Part shown: positions 25,685-64,000 of the stretch, one piece after another
Numbering within the stretch: position 1 is the stretch's first letter
Layout: the number at the start of each line of letters is the position of its first letter
Origin: a virus
Length of the DNA stretch: 64,000 nucleotides
Reading direction: 5' to 3' (one strand)
IMG/VR virus record: IMGVR_UViG_3300046794_000123
Location: 14,538 to 78,537 of that record
The notes under the pieces: model-generated
The model's input: only the letters and a program-made list of their open reading frames with translations
Databases searched by the model: none
Told to the model about the DNA's origin: nothing
Made by a program: the position numbers and the translations under genes

Positions 25685-26220
25685 ATGAACAAATCCATCA
25701 CCTTCGCTGCCATCCTCATTTGCCTGATTGGCATGGGCTTCATCGCTTGGGCCTGTGCACAAATGATGATGATCGTTCCCTATTATTCCCATTGGAGCGA
25801 CGTCGCTGGCCTGCTCATCGGTGTCTGCCTTAATGGGGCTGGCTACATCATGCTGATCGACCTCGGATCGAGGCCATCACTCGCATGAAAACCTACCGCA
25901 TTCGGGCATCCAGGTCTGGACGTGCATTTGCCGTCCGGGCCATGGATGAGCGTGATCTCAAGCTGGTGCTGCGTAATTGCTACGCCTGCACTGTATACAT
26001 AGTGTTAGAAGTTTATTGAGCCAAGGAGAAAGACATGAACCAGCGTGATCTAGTTGTCATCCAAGGGATGCTCGATGCCCGCACGGAATTCGATCTGCGT
26101 GTGCGTGATCCGGAAAACAAGTCAGTGGTCTGTCCGTTCGATCCACTCACTGAGTCGCAGGAATACGACTACTGGTGGGAGGGCTACACCTTCCACCGTG
26201 ATCCGAAGATAGTTGGATAA
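25685..26220 (+). CDS. Small early hypothetical ORFs (25685-25888 membrane protein, 25885-26019, 26035-26220)
   Basis: Short ORFs with RBS and coupled starts. Confidence 0.5.
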
Positions 26221-29677: not shown

Positions 29678-30064
29678 ATGAGCAACGCACACGTGAAAGA
29701 GGACTTCATCCTCGAATCGGCCTATGGCCACAAGATCATGAGCTTCCCTACTGCTGAGCAAGCACGTGAGTGGGCACAGCAGCGTCGTGAGAAAGCCAAG
29801 GGTGTGATCCCTGCTGTACGCCTGGTCAAGAAGACTGTCCTCGAAGAAGAGCTGGGCGTCGTCTGAACCAAGTAACCAAGCTTCCAAGGAACCAAGATGA
29901 GCACGAAGAAGTGCTGCCCTCATTGCGGCAGTGAACGCATCCTGCGTGATGCGTGGACCAAGTGGGACGGCACCGAATGGGTAGTCCATGACGTGCTGGA
30001 CAACTGCGTCTGCAACGAATGCGGTGCGGACTTCAATGACGACGAGATCGAGGATCAAACGTGA
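29678..30064 (+). CDS. Two small ORFs (29678-29866; 29897-30064 Zn-finger CPHCGS...CNECG)
   Basis: ORF track plus manual translation. Confidence 0.55.
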
Positions 30065-30870
30065 GTGACTCGAAGATCGAGCATCAGAAAGAACTTGAGC
30101 GTCTCTATAACAAGAACCAGCTCATGCCACGCATGCGAGCTGAGTTCAAGGCTGAGCCGGAGATCATCGAGCACCTGAAGGCCAATGGCATTCCGGAGGA
30201 CTTCGGTATCGATCTCCTGGTTCAGATGGCACTGCATAAGCGAGCTGATCTGCAGACCATGATCGGCACTCTGCGCCACCACTGTGTGTCGGCCCAGGAA
30301 TGTGCGGATCTGCTCGTCAAGGCTGCCGAGGCCGATCTGTGCACCTACAACACTGTCCTGCGTCAGTTCATCGTGATCTTCGAGATCGATGCTCAGACAC
30401 AGGAAGAGATCGATCGATTCCAGTATCCGCTGCCGATGGTAGTCGAGCCAAGGGAGATCAAGCACAACGCCCAGAGCGGTTACCTGCTCAACAACAGCTC
30501 CATCATCCTGAAGGATAACCACCATGAGGATGATGTGTGTCTCGACCACATCAATCGGATGAACAAGGTCCGATTCAAGTTCAACTTCAACACCGCGAAA
30601 CTCATCAAGAATGAATGGAGAAACCTCGACAAACCCAAGGAAGGTGAAGAGCGAGGCGAGTACGAGCGCCGAGTCCGTGCTTTCGAAAAGTACGACAAGA
30701 CTGCTCATGCTGTCATCGATCTACTTGTTCGAGAAGGGAACGAGTTCAACTTCACGCATCGATACGATAAGCGTGGTCGCACGTACTGCCAGGGCCATCA
30801 TGCGAACTACCAGGGCACGGCGTGGAACAAAGCCGTGATCGAGTTCGAACGAGGAGAAGTGACGCAATGA
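30061..30870 (+). CDS. RNA polymerase II small subunit (N4 gp15)
   Basis: FQYPLPMVVEP...YDKRGRTYCQG (T7-like DxxGR motif). Confidence 0.9.
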   Translation: MSDSKIEHQKELERLYNKNQLMPRMRAEFKAEPEIIEHLKANGIPEDFGIDLLVQMALHKRADLQTMIGTLRHHCVSAQECADLLVKAAEADLCTYNTVLRQFIVIFEIDAQTQEEIDRFQYPLPMVVEPREIKHNAQSGYLLNNSSIILKDNHHEDDVCLDHINRMNKVRFKFNFNTAKLIKNEWRNLDKPKEGEERGEYERRVRAFEKYDKTAHAVIDLLVREGNEFNFTHRYDKRGRTYCQGHHANYQGTAWNKAVIEFERGEVTQ

Positions 30871-31357
30871 TCACGCACGAACAGGCGCTGGATGTCTGTG
30901 CCCAGAAATATGCTGAGTACAGGGATAAGTGCGACAAAGCGTTCCGTACAGGTGCTGGAGGACGCTCAGTCGTCCATGCACAGAATGCCCACGTCATGGC
31001 AGAACAATTCCAAAAACTCGCTGGGCTGCGAAACACAGATGAAGCTGTGGCCCAGATCCGTGAACGACTCAAGAGGAAGAAACGATGAAAACCACCTGGC
31101 GTCATCCGGGCTACGATGCCCTCAATGAGAAGAGCAAGCCTGTCGTCGTGAAGACGTATTCGAGACCTGGAGTGAGTCCCGATCCGCAGGTCTCGGTAGG
31201 CTGCACCATGCGCAACTTCACCACGCTGGAGCTGCTCGACGATGGCACGCTGCAAGTGCGAGATCGTGATCTCGACAAGGCAGTCAACCTAGGCCGAGCC
31301 AAGGAAGCAATGGAGGCCATGGCCTACTCCATGAACATGCTGAAGATCCACTTCTAA
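30867..31357 (+). CDS. Two hypothetical ORFs (30867-31088, 31085-31357)
   Basis: Coupled ORFs. Confidence 0.55.
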
Positions 31358-31482
31358 CCAAGGAACGAGGGAGACAAGGAAAAGTCCTTCCTTGGTTCCC
31401 TCCCTCCTTCATTCGCGGGAGGCTTGCATCCCTCCAAGAATGGTTTACCGTATACGGTTGAACCAACCTTCTTGGAGTTCAG

Positions 31483-32127
31483 ATGAGAACAATCGTCTTC
31501 TCCTGCCTGAAAGGCGGGAGTGGCAAAACCACGCATTCAGCCCACTTCGCAGTGGCGCTGGAAGCCATGGGCAAAGGTCCAGTAGTCACTATGGACCTCG
31601 ATCCGCAAGGATCTCTCTCAGCCTGGTGGAATGACCGCAAGGCTGAGACACCCCAGTTCGCCATGGTCGAGAACGTAGCGCACCTGGCCAAGAAGCATGT
31701 CGAGCTCACCAATGCCGGCTACCAGTGGTGCGTGATCGATACGCCACCGCAGGACCACGAGATCAACCGCACAGCCATTCGTCTGGCTGATCTGGTGGTT
31801 ATTCCGGCCAAGCATTCTCCGCATGACATCCGGGCTGCCGAGAGCACGGTGGATCTATGCGAGCAAGAGAAGAAGAAGTTCTTCTTCCTGCTCAATGAGA
31901 CCAACGGCAAGTCGGTCTCGCTGGCTGCTACCCGTAAGCTTGCCTCGATGGGGCCGGTGATTCCACACGCCATCCCCAAGCTCAATGGCTACTGGGAGTC
32001 GATGATCGACGGCCGTACCTTTCAGGAAGTAAACAAGGGGACCGGTGCAATCATCATTGATGACGTAGCCAGCTTCCTTATCAGCCAGTTCGAGAAGCAG
32101 CCGAAGAAGGAGAAGGCTCATGTCTAA
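31483..32127 (+). CDS. parA: ParA (type Ib/ParF-like) partition ATPase
   Basis: Deviant Walker A KGGSGKTT, DLDPQGS, IDTPP; 214 aa with no N-terminal HTH. Confidence 0.93.
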   Translation: MRTIVFSCLKGGSGKTTHSAHFAVALEAMGKGPVVTMDLDPQGSLSAWWNDRKAETPQFAMVENVAHLAKKHVELTNAGYQWCVIDTPPQDHEINRTAIRLADLVVIPAKHSPHDIRAAESTVDLCEQEKKKFFFLLNETNGKSVSLAATRKLASMGPVIPHAIPKLNGYWESMIDGRTFQEVNKGTGAIIIDDVASFLISQFEKQPKKEKAHV

Positions 32128-32473
32128 GCCATCACTCGACTCACTCGTCACCCGTAAGGGCAGTGCTGCGCCTGCCGCCTTGGAACCGCCTGCAATCGAG
32201 CAAGCAAGCAAGGAGCCAAGGAAGGAAGTAACCAAGGAGGCATCCAAGGAACCCTCCAACCAAGGAGCCAGTGAAGGAAGGAGACGTGCTTGGCACCAAC
32301 CCGGCCAGGAGGAGTGGAAGAAGACGAACTATGAGATGCCGCTGCGTGTGCAGACCAAGCTCAAGGAGATGAAGAATTGGGGTTACATCCCCAATGTCTA
32401 CAAGTTCGTGGCTGAGGTGGTCGAGAAAGAGATCGACAAGGTCATTGCCAAGGCCGAGAAGGAGGGCTACTGA
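32120..32473 (+). CDS. Putative ParG-like centromere-binding protein (RHH)
   Basis: Overlaps the parA stop; flexible N-terminus with Arg (LVTRKG), C-terminal strand-helix-helix pattern (KKTNYEM-PLRVQTKLKEM-NVYKFVAEVVEKEI). Confidence 0.65.
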   Translation: MSKPSLDSLVTRKGSAAPAALEPPAIEQASKEPRKEVTKEASKEPSNQGASEGRRRAWHQPGQEEWKKTNYEMPLRVQTKLKEMKNWGYIPNVYKFVAEVVEKEIDKVIAKAEKEGY

Positions 32474-32474
32474 C

Positions 32475-33113
32475 GTGAGCGTACCCGAGCTATTCGATGA
32501 CGAGCCAGAGAAGATACAGCAGCTGGAGCTATTCAAGGCTGAGACTCGCTGGTTCCATGTCTTCAAATCCATGATCGCCAGCGGTGATGTGGCCAAAATG
32601 GGGCCGTATGCCTTCACCGTCTATTCGGTGATCAAGGCCCATACCAGCTTCAGCAAGGGCCACAGCTTCCCGGAGATCTCCACCATCGTGGAGGAGTCGG
32701 GCATCAGCAAGGCACAGGTGCATCGAGCTCTCGATGTACTGGAGGAACTGGGTTACGTGCGCAGGGGCAAGAAGCCCAGCGGACGAGGGAACCTCTACAT
32801 CTTCCGTGAGAAGGTGGACATCGAGGACAAGCAGGGCAACCATGTGGCTGATGCCTCATGGGATTACCTGCCGCTCGGTGTCAGCTCTGCCATCGCTGAG
32901 CTGAAGCATGTCAAAATGACTGGTGACTTTAGCGGAGCCAAGATCGTCCAGATCGAGAACCTGACTGTCAACGTGAACACAGCGAACGACAGTTCGATTC
33001 AGATCAACATTCAGACGCTTATGGACAACATGGAAATGCTGCCCAAGGAGCTGAAAGAGATATTGGTTAGACGATTAGCAGAGATGCAGTTGAAGTCTCC
33101 CACTGAGACTTGA
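32475..33113 (+). CDS. Putative plasmid-type replication initiator (winged HTH, HTH_36-like)
   Basis: GTG start after GGAGG; AFTVYSVIKAH...SFPEISTIVEESGISKAQVHRALDVLEELGYV; immediately followed by a repeat array. Confidence 0.65.
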   Translation: MSVPELFDDEPEKIQQLELFKAETRWFHVFKSMIASGDVAKMGPYAFTVYSVIKAHTSFSKGHSFPEISTIVEESGISKAQVHRALDVLEELGYVRRGKKPSGRGNLYIFREKVDIEDKQGNHVADASWDYLPLGVSSAIAELKHVKMTGDFSGAKIVQIENLTVNVNTANDSSIQINIQTLMDNMEMLPKELKEILVRRLAEMQLKSPTET

Positions 33114-33298
33114 AACGTAGGTCTCACACTGAGACGTATCCAAGAGAGACTGAACAACTCCCTTCAAGTCTCAGGCTGAGACTCGAAACCGGGGTTCAGG
33201 TCTCACACAGAGTCACTAATAAGATAAGACTTGTTTACTAAGTAAACCCAGAGCATCGAAGACTTATCCACACTTTCAGTGGCTAACCCTGTGAACAA
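33093..33298. repeat. Putative replication origin: 5 palindromic GTCTC-N5-GAGAC boxes, AT-rich tract, DnaA boxes
   Basis: Boxes at 33095, 33121, 33136 (1 mismatch), 33168, 33200 (1 mismatch); AT-rich 33215-33247; TTATCCACA 33264-33272; TGTGAACAA 33290-33298. Confidence 0.8.
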
Positions 33299-33300
33299 CT

Positions 33301-33941
33301 ATGAGCGACGCACAAGAACCGAAGAACCTCGTCCTGGTCAAGCTGGATCAGGTACTGACCAGGCTCGACAACCTGCATGACGACATGCGGCAGATCAAGG
33401 CACGCATGACAGCACTGGAAAAGCAGATGCAGACAACCAGTGAATCCGTGGTCGCCCAGTGGGACACCTTTGATAAGCACGAAGACCGGATCCGCACGCT
33501 GGAAAACCAATGACCGACCATGGCCATCGAAAACATCCCACGATTCGAGTCAGAAGAGCAGGAGCTGCGCTGGATCCTCAACGAGCTGCACAAGGAGTAC
33601 CAGCGCAAGATTCAGCCCATTGTCAAACGGCTGAGCAAGATTGACGCAGCCAGGCCGCTGCCACCGCTCATCGTGAGCGACTACGACAAATACAACCAGC
33701 AGGCGCTACAGCAGCTGCTGGACAAGTTCAGACAAGGCCGAACATGAACCAGGAAAAAGAAATGACGCACAAACCCATGAATGCCTGGAAGGTGTATCAG
33801 CCTTCCGGCACCACCGACCCGGATGCCCATCTCGACACGGTGTTCTTCATCCCGAGCATGGAAGCGGACGACATCAAGAAAGCCCTGATTGAGCATGACG
33901 GCTTTCCATCCAACATCTACATTGAGTTGGATAAGCGATAA
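33301..33941 (+). CDS. Three small ORFs (33301-33513 coiled coil, 33520-33747, 33744-33941)
   Basis: ORF track. Confidence 0.55.
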
Positions 33942-33963
33942 GCGCAGTACCGCATCAAACCTC

Positions 33964-33992
33964 AAAGGCACCTTCGGGTGCCTTTTTCTTTT
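33964..33992 (+). terminator. Intrinsic terminator
   Basis: aaaggcacc-ttcg-ggtgccttt-ttctttt. Confidence 0.8.
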
Positions 33993-34014
33993 GGTTCATC
34001 AAAAGGAGCACACC

Positions 34015-35208
34015 ATGCAAAAGTTCACCGGCATGCAGTACCTCAAGATCGACATCGCTTCGAACTTCGGCCTCGACAAGAAGACCTGGGACGAGCGTCT
34101 GGACTGGTTCGAAGAGAACAAGCACTGCCTGCATGAGAAGCTGGCTGAAGCGGAGACACCGGCACTGTACTTCGCAGGCGTGCAAGCCTATGAAGCGAGC
34201 CAGCGAGGAGAAGCCTCGGGTTATCCGATCTCCCTCGATGCCACGAGCTCGGGATTGCAGATCCTCGCTGCACTCTGCGGTGACCGTCTGGCTGCAACCC
34301 TGTGCAATGTCATCTCCTCTGGCTCACGGGAAGATGCCTACACCGGCATCTACGAACGCATGCTGGCCAAGGTCGGAGCCGAAGCCAAGATCAAGCGCAC
34401 CGACATCAAGCAGGCTGTGATGACGGCTCTCTACGGTTCCAAGGCCATCCCGAAGCTGGTATTCGGTGAGGGCGGGCTGCTCGACATGTTCTACGACACC
34501 ATGAAGGAAGTCGCTCCCTACGCCTGGGAGCTCAACGAAGCCTTTCTCGCAATGTGGAATCCGGAAGCGCTCATCAACAGCTGGGTGCTGCCCGACAATT
34601 TCCACGTGCACGTGAAGGTCATGGGCCAGGTCACCGAGCGAGTCCACTTTCTGGATGAGCCGTTCGACTTCACCAAGCAAATCAACATGCCCACGGAGGA
34701 GGGCAGGTCACTCGGTGCCAACACCATCCACTCGCTCGACGGGATGATCGTCCGTGAGATGAATCGTCGTTGCAATTACGACACTGCGACAATTCACCGC
34801 ATCTGGTCGGCACTGGAAGGCGACTGCAGCGCAGGCACCGATGAGGACGATGAAATAGTGATGACGCTTTGGAATCACTTCCTCGAGTCCGGTTACCTGT
34901 CGGCTCGCATCCTCGATCACCTGTACGGAGACAACATCGATCTGGTGAACTCAGCCGACATCCATGAGTTGCTGACCAGTCTCCCCAAGAAACCGTTCCA
35001 GATCATGACCATCCACGACTGTTTCCGCTGCCTGCCCAACTACGGCAACGATCTGCGGGAGCAGTACAACCTGCAACTGGCCCTCATTGCCAAGAGCAAC
35101 CTGTTGCAGTTCCTGGTTCGCCAGATCGTCGGCCGTCAGGTCGAAGTCAACAAGATCGACGGCACCATGTGGCAGGACGTTCTGTCCGCAGAGTACGCCC
35201 TTAGCTGA
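34015..35208 (+). CDS. RNA polymerase II large subunit (N4 gp16)
   Basis: ISLDATSSGLQ (motif A), R..IKQAVMT.LYGS (B), TIHDCF (C). Confidence 0.92.
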   Translation: MQKFTGMQYLKIDIASNFGLDKKTWDERLDWFEENKHCLHEKLAEAETPALYFAGVQAYEASQRGEASGYPISLDATSSGLQILAALCGDRLAATLCNVISSGSREDAYTGIYERMLAKVGAEAKIKRTDIKQAVMTALYGSKAIPKLVFGEGGLLDMFYDTMKEVAPYAWELNEAFLAMWNPEALINSWVLPDNFHVHVKVMGQVTERVHFLDEPFDFTKQINMPTEEGRSLGANTIHSLDGMIVREMNRRCNYDTATIHRIWSALEGDCSAGTDEDDEIVMTLWNHFLESGYLSARILDHLYGDNIDLVNSADIHELLTSLPKKPFQIMTIHDCFRCLPNYGNDLREQYNLQLALIAKSNLLQFLVRQIVGRQVEVNKIDGTMWQDVLSAEYALS

Positions 35209-62450: not shown

Positions 62451-63218
62451 ATGAGCGACGTGGCAGCAGACCAAGAGGTCGAGAGGGCTGGAGAAGTCAA
62501 TGACCAGTTGATTCTGGTCGCAGGCTACTCCGGGGAAGGCAAGAGCGCATCGCTGCGCAACATCCGGAACCAGGAGAACTGGGTCTATCTGAACTGCGAA
62601 GCAGGCAAGCGTCTGCCCTTTCGCAACAGGTTCAACAACGTGCGGATCGCCAATCCGTACGAGGTGTGGGACTACTTCGATGACTGCATTGCGAACAAGG
62701 ATCAGGTAGACGGCGTGATCATCGATTCGATCACGTTCCTGCTCGACATGTTCGAGACGCAGTTCATCAACGGCTCGGCCAATGGTCAGAAGGCCTGGGG
62801 GGATTTCAACCAGTTCTTCAAGACCATCATGCAGCAGAAGGTCACCACCTTCGGCAAGCCCGTGGTCATCATCGCCCACTTGCTGGACGTGTACGACGAG
62901 GCGAGCCAGTCGATGAAGGTGAGCGTGCCTGTGAAGGGTTCGCTCAAGAACAACGGCATCGAGGCGTATTTCTCGACGGTCGTCGCTGCCAAGAAGGTTC
63001 CGATCAAGGAGCTGGAGAAGTACGGCAGCAAACTCCTCGACATCACCGAGGAGGAGAAGGAACTGGGATACAAGCACGTGTTCCAGACGCGCATCACCAA
63101 GCAATCCACCGGCATGCGAATCCGTGCACCGATGGGCATGTTCGACAAGGCAGAGACGTACATCGACAACGACTGCCAGAAGTTGCTGGACCACCTGAAC
63201 GAGTTCTACGATATCTGA
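62451..63218 (+). CDS. Sak4-like AAA ssDNA-annealing ATPase (N4 gp44)
   Basis: GYSGEGKS, NCEAGK.LPF, IIDSITF. Confidence 0.85.
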   Translation: MSDVAADQEVERAGEVNDQLILVAGYSGEGKSASLRNIRNQENWVYLNCEAGKRLPFRNRFNNVRIANPYEVWDYFDDCIANKDQVDGVIIDSITFLLDMFETQFINGSANGQKAWGDFNQFFKTIMQQKVTTFGKPVVIIAHLLDVYDEASQSMKVSVPVKGSLKNNGIEAYFSTVVAAKKVPIKELEKYGSKLLDITEEEKELGYKHVFQTRITKQSTGMRIRAPMGMFDKAETYIDNDCQKLLDHLNEFYDI

Positions 63219-63273
63219 TCGGTCAGCACCCGTTTATCACACAACCATTTTTGCAAACGAAAGAAAAAACACT

Positions 63274-64000
63274 ATGAGCACTCTGTTCGGAAATCTCAGC
63301 ACTGAAGGCCTCGAAGAATCCACCGACCGTCTGGGTGGTGGCTTCGGTCCGCGTGACAGCGACATCTACGACTTCGAGATCAAGGCCATGTACGCCGGTC
63401 AGTCGGACTCGGGCGCACGCTCGGTCACCTTCATCGGCACGGAAGGCGGCAAGGAATATCGTGAGACGTTCTGGATCACGAACGGCAAGGGCGAGAACTT
63501 CTTCATGGCCAAGGACAAGGACGGCAAGCCCACGGGCAAGAAGGCGCCCCTGCCCGGCTTCACCATCGTCGACGACATCTGCCAGATCGCCACCGGCAAG
63601 CCGCTCTCGGAGCAGGATACCGAGGACAAGGTCGTGCAGGTGTGGGACCAGGGCAAGCAGGTCAACAAGTCGGTGCCGATGCTGATCGACTGTCTCGGCC
63701 AGCACGTGGCACTCGGCGTCACCCGCCGCAAGGTCAACAAGAACGCCAAGAACGATGCAGGCGTGTACGTGCCGACCGCCGAAGAGCGCGAAGAGAACGC
63801 CACCGACAAGGTGTTCCACCCGGAGCTCAAGCTCACCATCGTCGAAGCCAAGGCCGGTGCCGACAACGCAACCTTCTGGGATGCGTGGCTGGAACTGAAC
63901 AAGGGCAAGACGCAGGACCGTCGCAAGATCAAGGACGGCCAGGGCGAGACCGGCCAGGCAGGTGCACCGAAGGCCAGCCGTGCGTCGAACGCTGCAGCAC
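63274..64000 (+). CDS. N4-type SSB (gp45), truncated by window end
   Basis: MSTLFGNL...TDRLGGGFGPRDSDIY resembles the N4SSB N-terminus. Confidence 0.85.
   Translation, partial: MSTLFGNLSTEGLEESTDRLGGGFGPRDSDIYDFEIKAMYAGQSDSGARSVTFIGTEGGKEYRETFWITNGKGENFFMAKDKDGKPTGKKAPLPGFTIVDDICQIATGKPLSEQDTEDKVVQVWDQGKQVNKSVPMLIDCLGQHVALGVTRRKVNKNAKNDAGVYVPTAEEREENATDKVFHPELKLTIVEAKAGADNATFWDAWLELNKGKTQDRRKIKDGQGETGQAGAPKASRASNAAA

Follow-up and report, generated by a model that had tools for sequence, protein, structure and literature searches.

Why should a phage of the N4 type, equipped with a replisome of its own, carry what looks like the maintenance module of a low-copy plasmid? The question is raised by a block in the stretch of DNA analyzed here (hereafter the window; 64,000 nucleotides, bases 14538-78537 of the 78,537-bp IMG/VR record IMGVR_UViG_3300046794_000123). 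In this block, genes for a ParA ATPase, a 117-residue protein and a helix-turn-helix (HTH) protein are tightly packed, with an 8-nt overlap between the first two and a 1-nt gap before the third, and are followed by an array of palindromes and a DnaA box, all placed between the genes for the small and large subunits of the phage RNA polymerase II (RNAP II). N4-like phages are textbook examples of virulent phages and are often picked for phage therapy or biocontrol on that basis. We propose that the region 31356-33300 is a self-contained plasmid maintenance cassette, inserted into a slot whose content varies and which separates the RNAP II genes in a soil-borne N4-like clade, and we consider it likely that this phage leads the life of a phage-plasmid, maintained extrachromosomally by its host.

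The gene content identifies the genome as N4-like (Schitoviridae), since it includes a giant virion RNA polymerase (vRNAP), encoded by an open reading frame (ORF) of 3616 codons homologous to the vRNAP region of the Acinetobacter phage Ab2712, as well as a two-subunit RNAP II, an N4-type DNA polymerase, a primase and a helicase. A preliminary description of the window, made from its letters alone, had reported the five elements of the block, an N4-like genome with its own polymerase, primase and helicase, and the lack of an integrase or CI-like repressor. Each element of the block lay where that description had placed it, and PHROG and homology matches bear out the replisome (DNA polymerase, Dda-like helicase and primase, along with rIIA/rIIB). 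A domain search across the whole record revealed no tyrosine integrase, serine recombinase, HTH_3 repressor or ParB_N domain; because no integrase is present, integration is not the alternative route to persistence. The genome combines a complete set of phage genes with replication and partition genes and lacks an integrase, the gene content by which phage-plasmids are recognized.

A candidate initiator and its putative origin

The third gene of the cassette encodes a candidate origin-binding initiator, which matches the Pfam family HTH_36 (E = 2.4e-9) and the PHROG family phrog_28562 (E = 3.6e-27). Weaker PHROG matches include replication initiators as well as O-like and DnaD-like proteins (E = 1.5e-5 to 5e-5 for the latter two), a comparison with the Pfam domain DnaD_N gave a value of 0.03, and profile searches of the PDB returned generic winged-helix matches only. 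Its predicted structure consists of a single winged helix with a long beta-hairpin and a C-terminal helical tail, for which VIA-align ranked the primosome protein DnaB (Z 8.6) and the initiator of pSK41-type multiresistance plasmids (Z 8.3) highest, with the N-terminal domain (NTD) of DnaD scoring a Z of 7.0. The matches to replication initiators and the resemblance to DnaD and pSK41-RepA-type domains thus distinguish the protein from one that matches transcription regulators only. The preliminary description had gone further and read the locus as a Rep-iteron-DnaA origin. The DnaA-associated origin has stood up to comparison with related loci. An iteron initiator of the Rep_3 type is ruled out, because the protein has a single winged helix, without a Rep3_N or Rep3_C domain or any other match to Rep_3, and because the neighboring sites are palindromic rather than tandem direct iterons.

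Three of the five palindromes are exact and two contain one mismatch; elsewhere in the window, only two further sites match with at most one mismatch. To place them in a broader context, homologs of the initiator were gathered from IMG/VR, one genome per prokaryote species, phages and plasmids. A perfect DnaA box lies within -60 to +400 nt of the initiator stop codon in 33 of the 61 distinct loci obtained, corresponding to a density of 1.30 per kb, compared with 0.007 per kb across the 867 kb of these loci that lie outside this interval (~190-fold). At the equivalent place, nearly all of these loci carry three to six palindromes, adjoined by an AT-rich tract as in the window. The palindromes themselves differ from one initiator variant to the next (GTCTC..GAGAC, GTGTCA..TGACAC, GTGCA..TGCAC, GCCGCTG..CAGCGGC, GTTCAC..GTGAAC and CCCTTA..TAAGGG), and one locus (L003) keeps the spacing seen in the window (26, 15, 33, 32) with changed site bases. 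Such variant-specific sites strongly resemble the pattern expected of an initiator that co-evolves with its origin. The clustering of candidate initiator sites, AT-rich tract and DnaA box at the initiator gene, conserved in relatives, is that of a DnaA-dependent theta origin.

Among characterized systems, the predicted architecture is closest to that of lambda O and ori-lambda, with a DnaA box added. Both combine an N-terminal winged helix with an array of four to five palindromes that precedes an AT-rich tract; the weak O-like PHROG matches point in the same direction. However, the sites described here are not in the middle of the gene but around its 3' end and further downstream. There is also a DnaA box, and no gene for a P-like helicase loader adjoins that of the initiator.

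Palindromes are also typical of dimeric regulators, and the winged-helix protein could instead be the centromere-binding or regulatory part of a three-component partition system, comparable to AspA or TubR, with the palindromes serving as the centromere. Its Pfam matches are indeed to regulator HTH families, and profile searches gave weak matches to the winged helices of TubR and AspA (E = 0.04-0.09). Nevertheless, we regard this explanation as very improbable, given the PHROG matches to replication initiators, the conservation of a DnaA box and AT-rich tract beside the sites in the 33 loci mentioned above, and the finding that a Rep_3 initiator with iterons fills the same slot in a relative (see below). 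Moreover, gene and palindrome arrays occur without ParA, for instance in small integrative islands of Pseudomonas and Stutzerimonas that comprise an integrase, AlpA, the initiator gene and cargo; the sites therefore appear to belong to the winged-helix protein and not to the partition pair.

Several loci in the collection deserve separate mention. A group of small integrative islands represented by a Pseudomonas taeanensis contig (L030:8065-14950; also L031-L034) contains, in this order, a tyrosine integrase, AlpA, an initiator homolog and, as further genes, those of an MmeI-type restriction-modification system and a YhcG nuclease, and may consist of replicative islands or satellites; the sites downstream of its initiator genes do not fit the GTnTC palindrome pattern. 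Another group, represented by a locus in a Methylophilaceae chromosome (L047:7690-13262; also L044 and L048-L053), has an initiator homolog between VirB3- and VirB4-like genes, with a ParB/KorB gene nearby and a perfect DnaA box 61 nt downstream of the homolog, and looks like an integrative and conjugative element or an integrated conjugative plasmid. In the window, an ORF for a 70-residue coiled-coil protein (33301-33513) directly follows the putative origin on its 3' side; it is found in both cassette-bearing IMG/VR relatives (47-67% identity) and not in the lytic ones.

Partition genes and a candidate centromere

The preliminary description had assigned the first two genes to a type Ib pair of ParA and ribbon-helix-helix (RHH) protein. 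For ParA, this assignment is well borne out. With its ~200 residues, a deviant Walker A motif (KGGSGKT, residues 10-16) and no N-terminal DNA-binding domain, the protein is predicted to be a type Ib ATPase. It matches phrog_164 (E = 4.3e-33), the Pfam families AAA_31, MipZ, VirC1 and CbiA, and NCBIfam ParA_partition (E = 4.5e-37, 127.6 bits, under the 180-bit equivalog cut-off), and its best matches among solved structures are to TP228 ParA/ParF (5u1g/4dzz; E = 2e-12).

The identity of its partner is likely, as judged from a structural model, rather than proven. The 117-residue protein has no family match in Pfam, PHROG, NCBIfam or PDB profiles. An AlphaFold (AF2) model based on a 21-sequence alignment shows a disordered region (residues 1-66), an extended segment and two helices (residues 75-87 and 93-115). 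The top VIA-align matches of this model are almost all RHH proteins (ParD2 with a Z of 5.0, TacA1, omega, pCXC100 ParB and SegB), at modest scores (Z 3.3-5.0), and a Foldseek search gave no match at E <= 0.001 (all E > 2). Predicted as a complex with a ParA dimer, the protein reached a score of 0.30, against a mark of 0.32. A profile scan of metagenome contigs with its alignment retrieved a single 2.2-kb fragment.

The region upstream of parA may provide the cognate sites. In the 160 nt 5' of the gene, the window contains four CCAAG/CTTGG boxes, compared with an estimated ~0.3 expected in random sequence, and ten relatives have two to six of them in the same interval. In one relative, the RHH-like protein has exchanged an N of the predicted beta-strand for G, and the interval contains five CTAG boxes without a single CCAAG/CTTGG box. 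This change of the putative sites along with a beta-strand residue is one co-variation event only. The position of the boxes fits the type Ib layout, in which centromere and operator precede parA. The same type of box recurs within the gene for the 117-residue protein, whose disordered linker contains KE(P/A)xKE repeats encoded by CCAAGGA-type DNA (32202-32281), a feature also seen in relatives.

The whole arrangement is reminiscent of TP228 ParF/ParG/parH, and also of delta/omega of pSM19035, which likewise feature a small ParA with a deviant Walker A motif and no N-terminal HTH. As in TP228, a small downstream partner, here likely to have a disordered tail and an RHH-like C-terminus, is combined with short boxes 5' of parA. 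The two systems differ in that sequence identity does not exceed ~30% and that the putative boxes described here are CCAAG/CTTGG. In addition, the partner differs from ParG and omega in its length (117 residues) and its low-complexity tail of ~66 residues, and it shows no sequence match to either of them.

Table 1. Positions of the cassette elements, the neighboring features and the flanking genes in the window.
Feature	Position	Strand	Remarks
RNAP II small subunit, N4-type	30061-30870	+	Left flank of the slot; 54-69% amino acid identity to N4-like phages and relatives
parA upstream region, candidate par operator/centromere	31356-31482		Inverted repeat arms 31360-31381 / 31388-31409; CCAAG/CTTGG boxes
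ParA, predicted type Ib (ParF-like), 214 aa	31483-32127	+	Matches in phrog_164, Pfam, NCBIfam and PDB
ParG-like protein, 117 aa	32120-32473	+	N-terminal 1-66 predicted disordered, C-terminal 67-117 RHH-like; stop TGA 32471-32473
Winged-helix origin-binding initiator candidate, 212 aa	32475-33113	+	HTH_36; lambda-O/DnaD-NTD-like; start GTG 32475
Five 15-nt palindromes GTCTC-N5-GAGAC	33095-33214		Spacing 26, 15, 32, 32; first within the 3' end of the initiator gene
AT-rich tract, candidate DNA-unwinding element	33215-33250		GC content 0.28, compared with 0.57 for the genome
Perfect DnaA box TTATCCACA	33264-33272	+	Sole perfect copy in the 78.5-kb genome
Intrinsic-terminator-like hairpin	33964-33995	+	End of the inter-RNAP II block; 9-bp stem, T-rich tail
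RNAP II large subunit, N4-type	34015-35208	+	Right flank of the slot; 55-76% amino acid identity to relatives

Conservation of the cassette in N4-like genomes

The cassette sets the phage apart from its cultured lytic relatives, as the plasmid reading put forward in the preliminary description would have it. In the lytic phages Holyagarpour, Arace01 and Axy10, whose RNAP II is 54-62% identical, the slot holds two to three small ORFs without the cassette. By contrast, two complete N4-like genomes from IMG/VR (L059 and L060; 74.7 and 77.2 kb) are syntenic with the window and carry the cassette at the same site. Both have palindromes and DnaA boxes peculiar to them, and both lack an integrase. 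Their proteins are 66-74% (ParA), 76-79% (117-residue protein) and 59% (initiator) identical to those of the window. The ratios of nonsynonymous to synonymous substitution rates (dN/dS) amount to 0.17-0.29 for ParA, 0.11-0.15 for the 117-residue protein and 0.22-0.33 for the initiator, compared with 0.15-0.20 for RNAP II, at dS values near saturation. To judge from these ratios, the cassette is under purifying selection, much like the essential RNAP II genes.

The cassette is mosaic. Its ParA is 81-83% identical to the ParA proteins of unrelated, mostly integrase-less phage contigs of ~39-54 kb, compared with 66-74% for its N4-like relatives, which points to exchange with other candidate phage-plasmids. 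This mosaicism might suggest that the block is an inert passenger, a fragment without function that was taken up recently from a plasmid or phage residing in the same cell, or else an assembly artefact. Such an origin is so improbable as to be almost negligible: all ORFs are intact, their dN/dS values lie between 0.11 and 0.33, and a ParA-bearing slot is found at the same site in four N4-like genomes (the window, L059, L060 and the bacterial contig described below). In addition, Logan contigs from one public run cover positions 30631-33144 and 33142-34833 with zero mismatches; as these independent contigs span both junctions between the block and the RNAP II genes, the block is not an assembly chimera. 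That run may be the source sample.

A diverged relative present in one run (matching 30500-35200) reaches a contig depth ~ten-fold above that of the window strain. It matches the regions of ParA and the 117-residue protein and skips the initiator region (32474 to 33519), in line with a swapping of initiators.

Four complete non-N4 phages from IMG/VR (L062, L068, L069 and L074; 39-54 kb) lack a tyrosine integrase and encode ParA proteins 64-81% identical to that of the window, with L068 and L069 also possessing their own initiator and origin variants. These phages are further candidate phage-plasmids that may exchange cassette parts with the N4-like clade.

Relatives that occur as separate replicons

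A search of 400 genomes of the family Burkholderiaceae with the RNAP II large subunit yielded one match, in an assembly (G381) of 7.1 Mb and nine contigs (3.0, 1.47, 1.20 and 0.90 Mb; 177, 137, 79.6, 65.8 and 54.1 kb), a multipartite arrangement that suggests a finished genome. The matching contig, C7, comprises 79,569 bp and shares 45 syntenic ORFs with the genome of the window. Joining its ends restores an intact ORF for a helicase of 439 residues, and C7 is therefore a closed circle. Between its RNAP II genes lie a ParA gene (66% identical), a 104-residue RHH-like gene, five 21-bp direct iterons, which were seen in C7 and not in the window, and a Rep_3 initiator (Rep3_N, E = 2.5e-35; Rep3_C, E = 2e-18). 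By its predicted components, a textbook plasmid replicon thus occupies in C7 the very slot that is held by the winged-helix initiator in the window.

A second case comes from a distant branch of the Schitoviridae. The Acinetobacter phage Ab2712 (vB_IME_Ab2712; OK149216.1), which is N4-like by its vRNAP, RNAP II and DNA polymerase, carries a block of homologous ParA, small ORF and HTH protein (35% and 38% identity). This block lies elsewhere in the genome and on the opposite strand and is therefore an independent insertion. Over the 20 kb compared, Ab2712 is 99.6% identical to pRBH2-3 (NZ_CP110465.1), a circular 75-kb plasmid of a clinical A. baumannii isolate and the only N4-like record among 72,556 PLSDB plasmids, such that the databases contain the same element twice, once as a phage and once as a plasmid. 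At least 150 contigs of A. baumannii encode the three proteins of this Ab2712-type cassette; the largest of them are 72-77 kb in length. Ab2712 differs from the phage described here in its GC content (43%), a serine recombinase and a ParB-annotated gene, and no DnaA box was found by its block.

The cassette also occurs on a replicon without phage genes. The 104-kb catabolic and resistance plasmid pA29BJ2 of Polaromonas (NZ_MN657148.1) has the same three genes in the same order, for a ParA-like ATPase, a 110-residue protein and an HTH protein (35% identical), and downstream of them an AT-rich tract, DnaA boxes and palindromes, the latter numbering three. Its role as the replicon of this plasmid is predicted; the PLSDB gene table, which is incomplete, lists no other annotated Rep.

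These relatives bear on the idea that the cassette is an accessory of the lytic cycle, with initiator and origin recruiting DnaA and the host replisome early in infection and ParA positioning the genomes of an obligately lytic phage. The phage has indeed kept its lysis genes and full replisome, and Ab2712 was obtained from sewage as a phage. However, cultured lytic relatives do without the block, homologous cassettes serve a plasmid and integrase-less phage genomes, the slot of C7 is filled by an iteron replicon of the copy-number-controlled plasmid type, and a partition ATPase has no obvious role in a cell that is about to lyse. A purely lytic function is thus clearly improbable.

Proposed mode of persistence

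Taken together, the cassette and its circular relatives indicate that the lineage can probably persist in cells as a plasmid. The preliminary description had suggested persistence of the phage as a partitioned episome and had looked to a circular element in a bacterial assembly. Such elements exist for its relatives (C7 and pRBH2-3), and the suggestion is supported to that extent; for the phage itself, recovered from metagenomes only, we infer the plasmid state.

In our model, a dimeric winged-helix initiator would bind the five palindromes next to its own gene and, acting jointly with host DnaA at the neighboring box, open the AT-rich tract, upon which the host replisome would copy the phage DNA once per cell cycle. 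The RHH protein would bind the CCAAG/CTTGG boxes 5' of parA, which would act both as centromere and as autoregulatory operator, and its disordered N-terminal tail would stimulate the ParF-like ATPase, separating the copies at division. In this manner, the phage could persist as a low-copy extrachromosomal prophage that keeps the full lytic machinery of N4.

Several observations weigh against a phage-plasmid lifestyle. The replication-protein matches of the initiator fold are tied, within ~1 Z, with the winged helices of MarR, Fur and TFE. A scan of positions 30800-34100 found no sigma-70 consensus promoter before parA or the initiator gene, and neither a repressor nor any other lysis-lysogeny switch was found in the record. 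The phage comes from rhizosphere metagenomes alone, which do not give its host, copy number or physical form. Among ~870 Burkholderiales genomes in total, a single N4-like contig was detected, with order- and genus-level searches adding none. As to the circular relatives, an assembly will also yield a circle from a linear genome that ends in terminal repeats. Finally, persistent infection can leave virulent phages as contigs of their own in the assemblies of isolates (bioRxiv 10.1101/2024.12.31.630880).

Some of these points would equally suit a carrier state, in which the cassette helps stalled or unexpressed genomes to survive longer in soil hosts that grow slowly or starve (pseudolysogeny) and spreads them to daughter cells until lysis, with no stable plasmid prophage being formed. 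No repressor, antirepressor or switch genes were found, N4-like phages have been reported in pseudolysogeny-like states (PMC10654107), and non-temperate phages can persist in isolates (bioRxiv 10.1101/2024.12.31.630880). Nonetheless, a predicted origin coupled to host DnaA and an active partition system constitute machinery for many generations and not for a transient stall. Furthermore, the cassette appears to be under purifying selection across diverged genomes, and its Acinetobacter analog is present in at least 150 contigs of isolate assemblies and in one finished plasmid record. We therefore consider a mere carrier state unlikely and prefer maintenance as a phage-plasmid.

As a phage-plasmid, the element would resemble the plasmid prophage P1 (RepA and oriR with DnaA boxes; ParA-ParB-parS), N15 and SSU5, all of which are complete tailed phages without an integrase that combine their own initiator and a DnaA-linked origin with a partition system (Pfeifer et al., 2021; PMC7969092). 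It differs from phage-plasmids of the P1 type in belonging to the Schitoviridae, with a virion RNA polymerase, a replisome of its own and no repressor found, and in the compactness of its 1.9-kb cassette, whose partition system is of type Ib and not of type Ia. The groups of phage-plasmids defined previously do not include any Schitoviridae (PMC7969092), and lysogeny of N4-like phages has been proposed to proceed via integrases (PMC10654107). The Acinetobacter phage-plasmid group "AB" (~110 kb) is distinct from Ab2712, and a full-text literature search found no description of an N4-like phage-plasmid, of pRBH2-3 or of Ab2712.

It is tempting to speculate that a clade of Schitoviridae is truly temperate, as phage-plasmids, without a classical repressor. 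As the lytic cascade of N4 can be started solely by an RNA polymerase injected with the virion, copies inherited by daughter cells would be silent by default, with only the par and rep genes active, expressed by the host. Soil Burkholderiaceae phages and the phage carried by many clinical isolates of A. baumannii would then have acquired this state independently of each other. While we regard this scenario as rather doubtful, such silence, if true, could be called "lysogeny by absence of the starter enzyme". If the lineage does persist as a plasmid, the screening of N4-like phages would have to change, with the ParA/Rep cassette as a marker, and the phage-plasmids would gain an entire virus family. 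The question would also arise of how a phage whose early transcription requires an injected polymerase is silenced and re-induced. Beyond this phage, the compact unit of replicon and partition system includes an uncharacterized initiator family and palindromic origin, and since the cassette recurs in plasmids, integrative islands and several types of phages, a functional result would annotate many loci.

Further features of the genome

The IMG/VR record has a CheckV completeness of 100%. Its ends overlap over ~1,040 bp with 91.6% identity (1-1037 and 77499-78537 of the record, with the right copy at 62962-64000 of the window); the unit genome is therefore ~77.5 kb in length, and the assembly wraps round, probably running onto a strain variant. 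The phage was found in 24 listed rhizosphere metagenome runs, all from 2023; the runs listed as containing it included no RNA data set. A scan of viral contigs with the RNAP II large subunit gave no match, nor did a Pfam search of ten ORFs from the early region.

A longer version of the box upstream of parA, GARCCAAGG, is dispersed over the window in 38 copies (for instance at 26018, 28157, 36698, 40281 and 43516), compared with 1.45 expected (~26-fold). In carriers of the same par genes outside the N4-like group, the motif is almost confined to the par locus, and we considered whether the RHH protein might use it as a centromere or operator scattered along the genome. This possibility was rejected for the genome-wide copies, because three N4-like phages of Pseudomonas and Achromobacter that are lytic, have been cultured and lack the cassette are equally enriched, with 30-35 copies each (15 and 20 in the two cassette-bearing relatives), and because many copies, about one third, sit 8-10 nt before a start codon. 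By its distribution, GARCCAAGG is a lineage-wide signal linked to gene starts.

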